From the sequence record PZ674596.1: a stretch of 64,000 nt of DNA; one strand, given 5' to 3'. The position numbers were made by a program. This stretch comes from a phage. Shown here piece after piece: positions 46,501 through 55,500 of this stretch (position 1 is its first letter; each line of letters starts with the position of its first letter).

Positions 46501-49500
46501 GACTTTATAGCCTCAACAACCTTTTGTGATGCGCCTTTCTCTTTACCGAATCGCTCGTTATATGCAGCAAGAACCTGTTTTTCGTCCTCGTTAAGAGGAG
46601 CGGTGCCTTCTTTGTATAAAAATGCTGCGAGTTCAGGTTGGCGTTCTTCCAGCACCATCATCATAAGACGACTTGGCTCAATACCCAGCGCCAGCGCCAA
46701 CGGACGAACCTTATCGATAGGCAAAGGAATTTTGCCACTTTTAATTAAAGAAAGGTTGTTGGCATTTTTATAACCAATAAGTCTGGCTATTTGGGCCTGA
46801 CTCATAGGTGAGGATTCAATCAGCCCTGCGATAAAAGCAGCATAGCGACTTTCTATAAATTCAATCTTGTTGTCAGACATTGTTACAACCTTTGCGCGTT
46901 CAATTCTCACTGGTAAGTGCTTACCGATATTACATCAAAGGTTAGGGTTGTAAAGCTATTATCATTTTTTTCGATAGGCACTTAAAAGACCGGTTAAAGG
47001 CCATTGCACGGAGAAAAATTAGCCCAAAACAGGTAAGAAAATTAACTTGTATATGATATGAATGTATTCAGTATTGATATAAATTTTAGTAGTATTCCTT
47101 ACCATAGTATAAGTTAGAATGGATTGATTGAATGAACACCACTATTTCCAGCCTAATCGCTCTTGAGATCGGACACGTACAGAAATTAGCTGATGAGTGT
47201 GTAGCTGACATCCTCACCGATCTACCGAATGAGCAGATTCAGGTTGGTGTGAATGACACAACTGGCTTTATATTCGAATTTAACAACAAACGCTTCACGC
47301 TTCTCAATACCGGCTCCGGGTCTTTAGCCGTCAGAATCTGTTAACCCCTCTTCTCCCTGCGCGAATGGCTTAGTTCCCTGTTCGCGCAGTGCTACATTAA
47401 ACACACTAGTAAATAATTTGTTTTCATAACAAAGGATTAGCCATGTCTAAAAAACGTTCCATCAAAGAGGTTCAGGACTTCCGTGACAGTGTAAAACGAG
47501 TAGTCGCTCTCCTTTCAGGTAAAAACATCCCTGTTGCAGAACGAGGGGACGACGCTTATGTTCGCTATAACGATGATGGAGAGCCAATTCTCGTAAACAT
47601 CCCATCAATCCCGGATAACGCAACACCGGCATTGATGAATGCTGTGCGCGGATTTCTCGATCATGAGGTTGCTCACATTTTGTTTACCGATATTCGTGTG
47701 TCCAACAAAATGAGAGAAAAAGGACGCGTTCCTTCCTGGTCGCTATGGAATGCCTTAGAAGACGTGTTCATCGAGCGAAAAATGGGTCAGGTCTTTAACG
47801 GAACAAGACGTAATCTGATGGCAACTCAGCGCCTTATAATCGAAAAAGTCTTTAAACCAAAGGCTTCAGAGGCTATTGCTTATTGTGGCAAAGATCAGCG
47901 CGCGCTTTTTCTAAACTTCTTTCTCTGTCCGGTTGTAAGAGCCTGGGATGGCCAAGCACCGTTCGTAGATTTCATGGATGAATATTGGCCTGTCATTGAG
48001 AAACCAATTTCATTATTAAAAGAACATGGTATCGATGTGGCCGTGCGTAACATGTCTTGCACCGAGGATTGTGTAAAGGTGGCTGCGACCATAGCTAAGA
48101 TCCTCAAAGACACTGAAAGTGAAAGCAAAGGTAAGGAGTCAGCTCCGGGAAAAACTTCCGATCCTTCAGACGCTGACCAGACGGATGCCTCTGGAGAAAA
48201 CAATGAAGACAACGAAGATCATGAGACACTCTCAGTGTTAGATAATCACAAATCTATCAAATCAGAATCACATAGTAAGTACAAACATGATAATAACGAC
48301 AGTGATGATTCAGATAATTCTGAATCATCAGAAACAATATTCGATGATACAGAAAATGATAAAGAGGTATCAGATTCTGATGCTTCTGATAACGCGGCGT
48401 CAGAATCATTAACCGCTGACCACGAAAAAAGAAAAACGACAGAAGACGGCTCTTCAGATATCCCAACTCCGTCAAAAATGAGTCTGGAAGAGGCTTTAGA
48501 GGAGCTGGATAGCATAGAAGATGAAGTCGGAGGCATGACAGAAGATGCTCTATCCGAAACGATTAAAAGCGAGTTAACAGAAAGCTCGAAAAGCGAATAC
48601 AGGCCATACAATCGCTCATACGACTTCATCGGCTCGATTGATCAGGCAGAAGCCCATATCAAACGGCTTATTAAAACATTCTCCGATATTGATTTGGGAG
48701 GATATCCAATCAGCCGCTATCGCATCGTTCCTGAAGGCAACCAGCTCTTCGACAAATATATTGAAAAGCATCTTTCGTCAGGTGTTTCGTCGACGCTGGC
48801 AAAAGACCTGGAGCGAGCAATAGCAAGCAGAAACAGAGTTCAGTTTATACCGGGCCAGCGTCGGGGGCGCATTCATGGTTCTAGTATCTACAGATTAGCA
48901 ATGAATGATGCTCGCGTGTTTCGTAAAAAAGAAGAATCTAAAGCCGTTAACGCCTGTGTTCAACAAGTGATTGATTTATCAGGTTCAATGAGTGGTATAA
49001 CGATACAATTGGCTCTTGCAAGTGCATATACCATCGCCGATGCCCTTGATCGAATAAATGTTCCCAACATTATCACCGGCTTCACTACATTTGGTAGTCA
49101 TATGGCGGCAGGAGAACTTAAGGCTGTCAAGTATGAGTTCTCTCGCTTTGAATCTTTAATGCTACCTATCATCAAAAATTGGAATGAAAAGGTAAATTCT
49201 CGCGAAGTTCGCTCACGTATGGGGTGCGTAGGCTACACATTCCCACTTCTTAATAACGTGGATGGTGAAAGCATAGCCAGCCTTGCATCGTTATTTTCCG
49301 GTCGCTTGGAGGACAGGAAGATCATGCTTGTTCTGAGTGATGGCGCGCCGTGGGCTGTTGGGAGAGGTTTTGACGCTCATTTGCGTTCAGTTGCGAAGCA
49401 AATTGAAACGCAGACTGATATTGATTTGATGGCAATTGGCATCATGACTGACGCACCGGAGAGATTTTACTCAAATCATGCCCTGGTAACGAGCGTTGAT

Positions 49501-52500: not shown

Positions 52501-55500
52501 GGAACGTCGAGGATGATAGCCTTCCATTGGAAGAGCTGCGCGAACAACTGGCAAGTCTCGACAAATACGCGACAAAATACCCTGATGCATTCAATGCAGC
52601 CTGCAAGTTACAAAGCCTTATGCGTGGCTTTGGTAGACATGCGGCAGGGATGATTGTAGCAGGTGTTCCTCTGACAGAACGTACACCGGTTGAACGACGT
52701 GGTGACGCGCGTTGTATCGCATTTGACAAGCGTTACTGCGAGGCTATGGGCCTAATTAAGCTGGACGTGCTTGGCCTGGCAACTCTCGATTTGCTCGATA
52801 GTGCAAAACGCTACATAAAAGAGAACACAGGTGAAGATATCAATCTTGATGCCATTTCTCTTGAAGATCGCAAGGTGCTGGATGGTTTTGCTGCTGGGTA
52901 CACTCAAGGTGTTTTCCAGCTTGAATCAGGCCCAATGCGCAAGCTGCTTAAAGATTTAGGTGGTGGAATTGAGCCAATGAGCTTTAAAACGGTCGTTGCT
53001 ACGACTGCGCTCTTCCGGCCGGGGCCAATTCAGTCAGGCATGTTGGATGATTATGTTTCTGTCGCCAAAGGCTTTATGACGCCGGAATCATTACACCCCG
53101 TTCTTGATGAACTTACCGCAGAAACAAATGGCGTGATTCTTTATCAGGAACAGACGATGAACGCGACTCGATTGCTTGCTGGCTTCACAATGGCTGAAGC
53201 TGACGGCGTTCGTAAAGCGATCGGCAAAAAAGACATGGAGAAAATGAAGAGCATGGGTGAGAAGTTCATCGTTCAGGCTCAAGCTGGCTGGATAGACGTT
53301 GAGCTGGAAGATGGCACTACACAGCGCATTCACCGTGCGGAACATTTTAAATGCGAAGACGGAACACTGAAAACTGTCGAAGAGGCACTTGAGTACGGCG
53401 CAAAACTACCTATAAACGCAGTACGCGTTACAGCGTCACATCCAGGGCTATCAGAGATGAAAGCGAAGGAGATCTGGACCGCATTCGAAAAGAATGGTGC
53501 CTACCAGTTCAACAAATCACACTCTGTTGCTTACTCCTTAATCAGTTATCAATCTATGTGGTTGAAAACTCATTATCCCGCAGAGTTTTTCGCTGCTGCT
53601 CTCACTATTCTTGGCGAAGATAAACACCAGGGGCTGGTTAAAGATGCGCTGACCTATGGTATTCGCGTATTGCCACCAGACGTTAACGTGTCATCTAACC
53701 GAATCGAGATCCGCACGCTTGAAGATGGCAGCCAGGTGCTGTATGCGCCCTTCTCTGCTGTGAAAGGGTGTTCTGAGAATGGCTGCCAAGCCATCATGAG
53801 AGCGCGAGAAAAAGTTGGCGGCAAATTCGAGTCACTGGCGCAATTCGAAGAAGCTGTCGAGAAACGTGCCTGTAATAGTCGAGTGCGCGAATCACTGCAA
53901 AAAGTAGGTGCGTTTGCATCCATCGAGCCAGGTAGTCTGCCAGCAACTGATCCAGAGCGTCTCCGCGACCAGGCTGAATTGATGGGAAACCTTGTCATAG
54001 ACGCAGTTAAAGCCTCACGTCCGTTTGAGATGAACCCCAAACGTTCGGCTGAAATTAACGCACTCATGACACGGATGGCGGCTGAAATGGGCTTAGGTGA
54101 TGAACTAATCCGCCCCAGCATTGGTATTAAGCCGAAAATCATGATCATTCTGGACAATGCGAACGGCAATGATGCTCGAACCGGTTACTTCATGGAGAAC
54201 GGATACGACGACTTTAAGGCCAAGCTATTGACGGCTGGAGATTTACGCATGGGCGATCTCTATGTCACAGGCGTTTGCAAGAAGGTTAAAGACAAAGAAA
54301 AAGACTACACCAAAGACGAGATCGGCCAGTTCACCGACTTTATACGTGAAGAGATCAATCTGGTGCGTCCGACCTATGTGCTGACGTGTGGCAGCCGGGC
54401 AACGGCATTGTTTAACAACAAAAACAAGCCATCCGATTTGGTCGGCAGGAAGGAGTATCTTCCAGACCTTGACGTTACTGTCTTTTACGGGTTTAACCCC
54501 AACATTCTTTACTTCAGACCTGAAGAGGGAGAACGACTAGAAGCGATATTAGCCGACGTAGCAGAAACTATTAAGACGTGATCCCATAAACATGGCCTCT
54601 ATGGCCATGTTTTCCCTTATCCCCTCATATCCCCTATCCTCGAACTCCTTGCCTTATCATCACAATGATATAATCAATATAAGATGATAAGTAAAAAGGA
54701 AAGCACATGATCACCGATATTTACGAGAAAATAATGTCTGATCTCGAGTTTGACCGAGACAATCTGGAGGAAGTCTGGCGTAGACAACCCCGCCTTTTAA
54801 TGGAGTATGGCTCAAAACTCGCTCATGCAGAAAGAAGTGTCGCAGAGGCAAAACTTAACCTTGAAGCTGTTGAAGCAAAGCTATACGACACAGAGCGTAA
54901 GAACTTGAGTATGAACGGCATTAAGTTCAACGAATCTGTACTGGACGCTAAGGTTAAAACAAACCCACAGTATCTGTCTAAACGGCAGAAGTTGGATGAA
55001 GCACGGCACATCGCAGACATATACAAACATGCTGTCGCCGCCTTTTCGCATCGCCGAGACATGATCGTTCAGGCGTCAAAGATGGCCATCGTTGAATTAG
55101 AGCGATTAGGCTCTGAACGCTTTATTACTCCCCGTTGATTTTTGATAGATAATAAGTAAGTACTGATCTATCATTTAACAGCTCGAAAGAGCCACGAATG
55201 AACGAAAGCCCAACGCGCATAGCGCCATCGGCCAAATCACAACAAGGAGAAACACATGTCTAAGACATTACTTGATTTGCTTAACAAAACTCGTGAAGAC
55301 ATTGCCGCCAAACGTGGTAACAACGTTGATCTGACTCGCTTAAAAGACGGCGTCAACTATATTCGCATCTTCCCGAATAAAGACGACCCAAACGGTAAGT
55401 TCTTCCAGACTTTCGGTATGCACTACGTTAAGTATCAGAACGAGGAAGGTAAAGAAGCAACCAACGCTTATATTTGTGAGCAACATACTCACGGTCGCGC

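Follow-up and report, generated by a model that had tools for sequence, protein, structure and literature searches.

Why does a temperate phage-plasmid of Escherichia coli carry homologs of two cobaltochelatase subunits directly upstream of its DNA polymerase gene? The 64,000-nucleotide stretch of phage DNA analyzed here (sequence record PZ674596.1, referred to at its full length as the window) raises this question at positions 47443-54581, where three plus-strand open reading frames (ORFs) of 702, 411, and 1172 aa lie in a row, each preceded by an AAGGA-type ribosome-binding site. They encode a CobT-like protein, a CobS-like ATPase, and a DnaE-type DNA polymerase. Phage CobS and CobT have been read as products of auxiliary metabolic genes that would complete a cobaltochelatase with CobN from the host and so increase the cobalamin supply, for example for B12-dependent ribonucleotide reduction; this hypothesis was stated by Liu et al. 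in 2021 (PMC8651126) and is also the reading of the cyanophage literature. We propose instead, with confidence that stands about evenly between acceptance and doubt, that the pair is a CobN-less motor-adaptor machine that acts early in the lytic cycle and remodels or processes a protein client.

A proposed motor-adaptor gene pair with a candidate zinc site

The region 47443-54581 (7139 nt) is 99.1% identical over its full length to the E. coli plasmid pSLy3, 97-98% identical to Escherichia phages CMS-2020a and PhiR41_1, the latter of which infects and lysogenizes E. coli K-12, and 80% identical to Salmonella phage SSU5. It is matched by 747 PLSDB plasmids, the ten most frequent genera listed all being Enterobacterales. 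The window is an SSU5-like phage-plasmid of E. coli that shares 99% identity with hundreds of sequenced plasmids, and its principal features at this locus, including the von Willebrand factor A (vWA) domain with its MIDAS, an adhesion site dependent on metal ions, are as follows.

47443-49551, plus strand: CobT-like adaptor protein, 702 aa (ORF call, Pfam, PHROG)
47443-48147, plus strand: N-terminal domain, M48-like with a zincin motif, residues 1-235 (helix, three short strands, then helices with HExxH and NxxED…E)
47662-47676, plus strand: HEVAH (H74-E75-x-x-H78), candidate zinc or catalytic motif, residues 74-78 (alignment)
48148-48477, plus strand: acidic Asp/Glu/Ser-rich linker, residues 236-345 (composition per 50-residue block; model confidence)
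48826-48942, plus strand: shaft-homologous segment, residues 462-500 (profile alignment to Brucella CobT ≈373-413)
48943-49548, plus strand: vWA domain with a complete MIDAS of D511, S513, S515, N605, and D633 (CobT_C, alignment)
48973-48987, plus strand: codons of the MIDAS DLSGS, part of DLSGSMSG at residues 511-518 (motif)
49647-50882, plus strand: CobS-like MoxR-class AAA+ ATPase, 411 aa (ORF call, AAA_5, phrog_249)
49698-49757, plus strand: zinc-finger-like CxxC-x9-H-x5-C, residues 18-37 of the ATPase (alignment, motif)
51063-54581, plus strand: DnaE-type (family C) DNA polymerase, 1172 aa (PHP, DNA_pol3_alpha, finger, HHH_6)

The best available template for the pair is the CobSTN holoenzyme of Brucella melitensis, described in a 2026 preprint that gives this species as the origin of structures 9ujv, 9uka, and 21vt (10.64898/2026.07.21.739949). 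In that complex, CobS is a hexameric AAA+ motor, and the N-domain of CobT, which resembles an M48C peptidase, docks on the small subdomain of CobS. The same CobT chain has a disordered linker, ≈90 residues long, and a shaft (Q373-R413) inserted into the pore of the ring, and its vWA/MIDAS (D422, S424, S426, N518, and D546) faces the effector, CobN (10.64898/2026.07.21.739949).

The phage adaptor follows this plan closely. It matches the Pfam CobT_C/vWA family at 7e-82 and the CobT N-domain at 2.3e-25, as well as phrog_1576 (2e-299), a family whose label names no function. Among solved structures, CobT entries 21vt (1.7e-15) and 9uka (4e-13) match the protein itself, and the family profile reaches 9uka at 4e-62. 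An AlphaFold model computed with 56 homologs has a mean predicted local distance difference test (pLDDT) score of 83 and a predicted template modeling score of 0.77. The modeled N-domain runs in the order helix, three strands, helices, which is that described for Brucella CobT_N. Enrichment in Asp, Glu, and Ser spans residues ≈221-385, of which 237-338 are modeled as disordered (pLDDT <50). The shaft segment is among the best conserved parts of the protein, with G471, G475, L482, D489, R491, and F493 kept in 88-100% of sequences. Residues D511, S513, S515, N605, and D633 pair one-to-one with the five Brucella MIDAS residues and are invariant in the 56-sequence alignment. The combination that marks a cobaltochelatase CobT, a vWA/MIDAS domain with a preceding shaft, is therefore present. 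The nearest solved folds of the vWA model are NorD (4.5e-9) and the MIDAS domains of MDN1/Rea1, both from systems driven by AAA+ rings.

The 411-aa partner matches AAA_5 (2.1e-15) and phrog_249, labeled 'porphyrin biosynthesis' (1e-106); solved cobaltochelatase CobS (9ujv) aligns to residues 142-411 at 1e-25, and midasin, CbbQ, and NorQ are matched as well. It can be aligned to CobS with the full set of ATPase motifs: Walker A (GHAGTGKS, residues 175-182), Walker B (D241-E242), and residues assigned as sensor 1 (N288), arginine finger (R312), and sensor 2 (R367). Of 238 loci, 231 keep G175, G180, K181, D241, E242, N288, R312, and R367. The AAA_5 gene adjoins the vWA/MIDAS gene on the same strand at a spacing of 95 nt, the arrangement of a MoxR-vWA pair, and this pairing is kept in every phage lineage examined. 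The zinc-finger-like motif sits in an N-terminal extension of ≈100 residues that has no Pfam match, the alignment to Brucellaceae CobS beginning only at phage residue ≈142. C18, C21, and H31 are kept in most loci, including the CobS proteins of a clade of ≈110-kb phages at 35-46% identity; the clade-wide form is CxxC-x9-H-x4/5-H/C, and a conserved Y-x3-[FY]-P-x2-P-x2-S follows it. The initial annotation had described three genes at 47443-54581 in this order within a phage-plasmid, the first encoding a 702-aa protein with HEVAH, an acidic linker, and a MIDAS DLSGSMSG, and had named the first two a CobT/CobS homolog pair of the MoxR-vWA kind. This description holds throughout: the ORFs fall exactly at those coordinates, the motifs are all present and backed by Pfam matches far stronger than chance would give, and pSLy3 and the PLSDB matches supply the context.

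By homology to Brucella CobS, the phage ATPase would form a hexameric ring of the MoxR class, with the CobT-like protein as its adaptor, in an assembly like the Brucella complex. The N-domain of the adaptor would dock on the small subdomain of the motor, its conserved shaft segment would enter the pore, and the MIDAS face of the vWA domain would grip a protein client by way of an acidic side chain. Hydrolysis of ATP would then pull on the adaptor and remodel the client, and no cobalt would be inserted into a corrin. We infer that the client is a protein, probably one required when phage DNA replication or host takeover begins, which the pair would prepare or process.

Cleavage may be part of this action. 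The HExxH of the N-domain is followed by a downstream glutamate, as in gluzincin or M48-like metallopeptidases, and E106 and E111, in N103-x-x-E106-D107-x-x-x-E111, are the candidate third zinc ligands. Residues D73, H74, E75, H78, E106, D107, and E111 are invariant in the 56-sequence alignment (28-61% identity), N103 is invariant or nearly so down to ≈28-30% identity, and 225 of 231 loci carry HExxH. The motif is intact in Rhizobium phage RHEph10, Vibrio phage ICP2 (HECYH), and Roseobacter phage CRP-810 (HEAGH). It also occurs as HEVGH in the 'peptidase' of the T4-like cyanophage Syn19, a family member by hhalign (98.8%, 4.9e-17) that keeps the MIDAS. In contrast, a Brucellaceae cellular CobT, encoded in a cobS-cobT locus and the one cellular N-domain compared, has DSMALR where the phage protein has HExxH; a search with a Brucella CobT fragment gave only C-terminal fragments of cellular CobT. 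In 2021, Iyer et al. independently termed this N-domain a metallopeptidase (PMC7824862). Judged by these residues, the N-domain may bind zinc and have peptidase activity, and the adaptor carries a probable peptidase site in most lineages, including this one. Because the zinc site is kept, unlike in the cellular chelatase adaptor, remodeling would probably be tied to cleavage, either of the client or of a partner.

Searches beyond the CobT family returned little. The CobT-like protein has no sequence-level match among Pfam peptidase families and a weak match to a PHROG 'peptidase' family (7.5e-7). Compared with solved peptidases, the N-domain fold showed weak similarity in searches and none in Foldseek, and its profile did not recover Brucella CobT_N among PDB sequences. 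The sole PDB sequence other than CobT matched by this profile is the anti-CRISPR AcrIIA26 (9zq6_B; residues ≈95-150, E = 0.003, 20 bits), over the N-x-x-E-D-x-F-I-E helix (LNFVEDNFIEQ…); the match is short and probably due to chance.

A more specific form of the motor-adaptor proposal, which we hold only tentatively and consider unlikely on balance, is that the pair is a new kind of AAA+ protease. Its peptidase site would lie on the vWA adaptor and not on or under the ring, the MIDAS would pick a replication-associated client, and the ring would feed or expose that client to the zincin site. Possible clients are proteins of the replisome or nucleoid, whether from host or phage, and proteins trapped on DNA; the enzyme would act at the onset of replication. 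Such a machine would be loosely analogous to Wss1/SPRTN with Cdc48/p97.

The cobalamin question

Much of what can be said for a metabolic role comes from homology. The nearest characterized sequence relatives of both proteins are cobaltochelatase subunits, the Pfam, PHROG, and GenBank labels read 'CobT', 'porphyrin biosynthesis', or similar, and motor, shaft, and MIDAS are all conserved. Against this, both proteins score 6- to 11-fold under the equivalog cut-offs: 67.7 bits versus 759.05 for TIGR01651 (CobT) and 86.6 bits versus 558.55 for TIGR01650 (CobS). Neither CobN nor, beyond the pair itself, any other cob gene product was found among the 28 window ORFs scanned against Pfam, which included every ORF of at least 1000 aa (besides DnaE, these encode the tape measure, a tail-tip protein, and a tail fiber), and neither CobN nor any other cob gene is annotated in the complete, 99%-identical plasmid pSLy3. 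That plasmid carries class Ia NrdAB, which is B12-independent, along with thymidylate synthase and dihydrofolate reductase. Because its ribonucleotide reductase is of class Ia, the rationale of supplying B12 for ribonucleotide reduction does not apply. The other host genera listed for the PLSDB matches use a CbiK-type anaerobic route or do not synthesize B12, which further counts against an auxiliary gene. E. coli itself has only the CobU/CobT/CobS/CobC salvage steps, and cobalt chelation in this host required heterologous cobN, cobS, and cobT together with the whole corrin pathway (PMC6249242). On this evidence and on established knowledge of cob genes, the pair would find no substrate there. 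CobN is thus available neither from the element, as judged by scan and annotation, nor from the E. coli host, as judged by the literature (PMC6249242). A cobalamin role for the pair in this element is not supported, and the initial annotation was right to call it implausible.

Public labels add confusion of their own. In the record of phage Cyrano (OV696614.1), a 98%-identical relative, CYRAN_47 is named 'dimethylbenzimidazole phosphoribosyltransferase' and CYRAN_48 'cobalamin synthetase'. These labels are wrong because the Pseudomonas/Brucella CobT and CobS names have been confused with those of unrelated enterobacterial salvage enzymes.

Linkage to replication genes and time of expression

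The genomic setting of the pair was examined in 80 close viral loci, 79 of them informative, and in a second set of 72 informative loci anchored on a distant family member. Whole-database and single-protein scans of viral contigs gave close SSU5-like relatives only, and diversity was sampled by a representative search, by tblastn against named phages, and by the scan anchored on the distant member. DnaE lies 3' of CobS in 150 of the 151 informative loci (78/79 close, 72/72 distant). The order in the 80 close loci is Int-CobT-CobS-DnaE-p143-gp32-exonuclease-RecA, the exceptions being one contig that is too short and one locus, L054, without DnaE. Identity to the window proteins in the distant set is 35-82% for CobS and 25-94% for DnaE, and the gap between the two genes, 181-2665 nt, often holds a sigma-like gene. 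The distant order, DnaB-primase-ligase-CobT-CobS-(sigma)-DnaE-SSB-exonuclease, where SSB denotes a single-stranded DNA-binding protein, is held at 35-46% CobS identity and recurs in the named phages RHEph10, nickie, and BUCTxx99. The DnaE linkage is real across a deep clade of ≈105-120 kb phages.

Outside this clade, the pair has other neighbors. Genes for primase, helicase, and a PolA-type polymerase come after it in ICP2; Syn19 has it flanked by gp47/gp46 on one side and by the gp45 clamp with the gp44/62 clamp loader on the other; and the CRP-810 pair has an endonuclease V and an integrase nearby. Because the pair occurs in PolA-type and T4-type modules as well, its association is with replication and early genes generally and not with DnaE specifically, and the DnaE linkage can in good part reflect inherited synteny of the whole module. 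The DnaE linkage that the initial annotation stressed is thus conserved in relatives, but the tie that it drew to the replicase is one to the replication module at large.

Two sets of records were set aside. In Xanthomonas phage JGB6, a vWA match seemed to lie under 'DNA polymerase III' features in a record that is fragmented into short coding sequences. The 'porphyrin biosynthesis' ATPases of Staphylococcus phage K and Listeria phage P100 match weakly (25%) and were not treated as the same system; in phage K, the gene after the ATPase encodes a DUF7192 protein in place of a vWA protein.

Expression data from relatives indicate when the pair is made. In the transcriptome of the Cyrano lysogen (S1 table of PMC9928086), the putative repressor CYRAN_45 reads 95.8, the small ORF CYRAN_46 20.3, the CobT-like CYRAN_47 7.8, the CobS-like CYRAN_48 6.7, and the DnaE gene CYRAN_49 10.1. 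The local background can be estimated at ≈10, given that the paper puts the repressor, at 95.8, 10-fold above background (PMC9928086), and the CobT-like, CobS-like, and DnaE genes are at this level. A pair at background in the lysogen points to a function in the lytic cycle and not in lysogenic conversion or plasmid maintenance, which argues against the part in plasmid stability that the initial annotation had allowed for. For the T4-like cyanophage P-HM2, the S2 table of PMC5082946 classes cobS and the gene immediately upstream as 'Early (A)' under light and 'Mid (B)' in darkness, and structural genes as 'Late'; the upstream gene is taken to be CobT-like by its position relative to Syn19 only. 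The phage machine would accordingly be made in the lytic cycle only, as the first large product of an early operon beside the repressor and together with the phage replicase.

Several points weigh against the motor-adaptor proposal. The zinc-motif residues are 98-100% conserved in 147 cluster representatives, a figure that overstates the universality of HExxH because these sequences are the ones most similar to the HExxH-bearing query, and the contrast with cellular CobT is drawn with a single cellular sequence. Some phages of the DnaE clade have lost the motif: nickie has DSEISK, BUCTxx99 has DREVST, and the variants resembling them (L155, L159, L197, L199, and L201) have DSE[IV]SK or DREVST for HExxH and NxxES for NxxED. 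Because these phages retain the MIDAS and the partner ATPase without HExxH, the conserved core function cannot depend on proteolysis. Early-gene clustering or module inheritance, instead of function, may explain why the pair is syntenic with replication genes, and the expression data are from relatives of this element. No biochemical or genetic data on any phage copy were found in the searchable literature, in keeping with the initial annotation's view that no function in phages had been settled. The nickie- and BUCTxx99-type proteins are at the same time natural 'protease-dead' variants, useful for separating the essential activities.

The remaining features of the locus concern its control.

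46494-47344, mixed strands: upstream control region, with a divergent repressor-like gene and a small ORF
46494-46910, minus strand: helix-turn-helix (HTH) repressor-like gene (weak HTH_19/HTH_3 matches; Cyrano ortholog CYRAN_45, 'putative repressor')
47132-47344, plus strand: 70-aa ORF (Cyrano ortholog CYRAN_46), with a 9-bp-stem hairpin between it and the CobT-like gene
50883-51062, plus strand: structured spacer of 180 nt that separates dnaE from the ATPase gene (folding energy as RNA -53.5 kcal/mol, z = -2.9, 0/200 shuffles as stable)

By Pfam and PHROG, an integrase gene and the divergent HTH repressor-like gene lie upstream of the pair, and genes for a UvsY-like protein, a gp32-like SSB, a 5'-3' exonuclease, and a RecA/UvsX-like recombinase lie downstream of dnaE. 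A scan of 46400-55300 for promoters and terminators gave nothing above shuffle expectation. The spacer before dnaE contains a perfect 11-bp hairpin at 50935-50961 that has no T-run and was not called as a terminator; the spacer could be a processing or attenuation site that separates dnaE expression from that of the pair.

The 1172-aa polymerase matches DNA_pol3_alpha (1.7e-73) along with PHP, finger, and HHH_6 domains, and belongs to phrog_405 (DNA polymerase). Its C-terminus (residues ≈1051-1171; nt 54213-54575) is a domain like family 4 uracil-DNA glycosylases (TIGR00758 UDG_fam4, 2.8e-7 at 1053-1168), which is also matched by phrog_13175 and phrog_4335, and the RHEph10 polymerase is annotated with the same feature. 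Among close relatives (L004-L082), between ≈3.6 and 6.5 kb separate the DnaE start from the next gene, and the RecA gene is 2340 nt long in PhiR41_1 versus 1074 nt in the window; this variation suggests inteins or homing-endonuclease insertions in the replication genes of many relatives that are missing here. In L054 (IMGVR_UViG_2609459856_000007), a 233-aa ORF and a transposase-like ORF of 420 aa follow the ATPase gene, with no DnaE within 10 kb, and the locus may be a natural replicase disruption in a defective element. Elsewhere in the window, a low-GC block (0.36) at 36910-40594 carries genes for a DDE transposase of 420 aa (DDE_Tnp_1_4; 38201-39463) and, at 39659-40594, for a beta-lactamase of class A. 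The block cuts the ATP-dependent DNA ligase of the phage down to 369 aa, which match residues 1-368 of the 440-residue pSLy3 ligase at 99% identity, and it is thus a resistance-gene insertion disrupting a replication gene. Four tRNA genes (Asn-GTT, Tyr-GTA, Thr-TGT, and Ser-TGA) at 42877-43574 lie between this insertion and the integrase.

Alternative functions and known systems

Two alternatives survive best, and we regard both as doubtful. The pair could be a virion-assembly chaperone with proteolytic processing of structural proteins. This was proposed for jumbo phages by Iyer et al., who described the same MoxR plus metallopeptidase-vWA architecture and reasoned by analogy with the MoxR-vWA pair of Acidianus two-tailed virus, which serves tail development (PMC7824862). 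In the window, the head module (terminase, portal, scaffold, and major capsid protein) has no recognizable prohead protease, so a processing role is not already filled. Scaffold-type heads, however, commonly need no protease, and T4-like cyanophages have one of their own. The pair lies in the replication module in every locus examined, >20 kb away from the structural genes, which occupy 1-26 kb of the window, and in Syn19 it stands between gp46 and gp45. The P-HM2 classes set cobS and the gene before it (early in the light, middle in the dark) apart from the late structural genes. The co-location or co-expression with structural or late genes expected of an assembly factor of the Acidianus virus type is absent from these data, which come from relatives.

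Equally in doubt is a metal-insertion chaperone for a metalloenzyme of replication or nucleotide metabolism, with the PHP domain of phage DnaE and di-iron NrdB as examples, in which case HExxH would hold the metal. Metal insertion is what unites NorQ/NorD, which load iron into nitric oxide reductase, with CoxD/CoxE and CobS/CobT; NorD is the nearest fold to the vWA model, and NorQ is among the relatives of the ATPase. Most characterized family members assist metal-center assembly (10.64898/2026.07.21.739949, discussion). DnaE, with its PHP domain, is a fixed neighbor within the clade, and the element encodes NrdAB. The pair is also found, however, beside PolA-type and T4-type replication genes without DnaE, some phages of the DnaE clade have lost HExxH, and no metalloenzyme client is directly indicated.

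We think it quite improbable that the pair is a host-takeover or anti-defense protease that destroys a host protein (an immune effector, nucleoid protein, or replication factor) at lytic onset. Early expression, a position directly after the repressor, and the intact zincin motif would suit such a role; more speculatively, the long acidic disordered linker could mimic nucleic acid. The marginal AcrIIA26 match (E = 0.003), short and in all likelihood accidental, points the same way. Unlike typical anti-defense genes, which turn over fast, the pair is core and syntenic over deep divergence, cobS being a core gene of cyanophages (PMC3037559). Its hosts range from cyanobacteria to enterobacteria and haloarchaea, so wide a range that a common host target is not obvious. 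Neither protein matches a PADLOC family at E ≤ 1e-3, and the anti-defense function that the initial annotation had offered finds no specific pointer. An auxiliary metabolic gene is the least tenable reading, which we consider very improbable: to the deficits in score, CobN, substrate, and B12-dependent reductase set out above are added the silence of the pair in the Cyrano lysogen and the intact HExxH, absent from the true CobT examined.

The gene pair is already known, being annotated in hundreds of public records. The cobST pair of tailed viruses (PMC8651126) and the phage MoxR plus metallopeptidase-vWA architecture (PMC7824862) have both been described, so the feature is not new. What the present analysis adds is that HExxH is kept in most phage adaptors and lost in one cellular CobT, that the pair recurs in replication modules of three polymerase types, and that expression evidence argues for an early lytic function. 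It also offers an E. coli phage-plasmid as a tractable system for a marine-cyanophage core gene. In viromics, cobS, a core gene of marine T4-like cyanophages, is routinely counted as an auxiliary metabolic gene for vitamin B12. The cobalamin reading cannot be general because here the host lacks an aerobic corrin pathway, CobN is missing from the element, and the element's ribonucleotide reductase is B12-free. If the pair is a replication or host-takeover factor, corrections would be due in many auxiliary-gene annotations and in metabolic models in which viral cobS figures. If it is moreover an AAA+ protease, a supposed B12 gene would be a replication or takeover factor common to T4-like cyanophages, SSU5-like phage-plasmids, and Zobellviridae.

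Among known systems, Brucella CobS and CobT are the best sequence relatives with solved structures. The phage proteins keep the ATPase motifs and all five MIDAS residues, the adaptor has the same order of N-domain, disordered acidic linker, shaft, and vWA/MIDAS, and the small subdomain of the motor, with its extra C-terminal helices, aligns to the end of cellular CobS. Unlike the Brucella system, the phage element and its host supply no CobN partner or corrin pathway, and the proteins score under the equivalog cut-offs. The phage CobT keeps the HExxH that is DSMALR in the cellular CobT examined, the phage CobS has an N-terminal extension of ≈100 residues with a zinc-finger-like motif that cellular CobS does not share, and the gene order is cobT then cobS in the phage versus cobS then cobT in the Brucellaceae locus.

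Other phage pairs are the same two-gene unit with the same architecture: cyanophage cobS with T4-GC146, the jumbo-phage MoxR with its metallopeptidase-vWA partner (PMC7824862), and haloarchaeal virus cobST (PMC8651126). The Syn19 pair resembles the present copy in keeping both HExxH and MIDAS and in its location among replication genes. Identity between these pairs and the present copy is only 19-30%, however, and the neighbors of the cyanophage pairs are a T4-type clamp and clamp loader, in contrast to DnaE here. The present copy differs from the others, too, in belonging to a temperate phage-plasmid of a genetically tractable host.

NorQ/NorD, CbbQ/CbbO, RavA/ViaA, and Rea1 (midasin) likewise combine an AAA_5-type ATPase with an adjacent or fused vWA/MIDAS adaptor, and the same motor-adaptor-client logic would be expected of the phage pair. 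The clients of these MoxR-vWA systems include nitric oxide reductase, Rubisco, and pre-60S assembly factors. To our knowledge, none of their adaptors has a zincin motif. For that element, the closest likeness is to the M48 peptidases and other gluzincins (ZMPSTE24/Ste24, HtpX, and Oma1), in which, as in the model of the phage N-domain, the HExxH helix comes after a small beta-sheet and conserved glutamates lie 28-33 positions downstream on the next long helix. Unlike these M48 examples, the CobT-like protein, whose peptidase activity is putative, is soluble and fused to a vWA domain.

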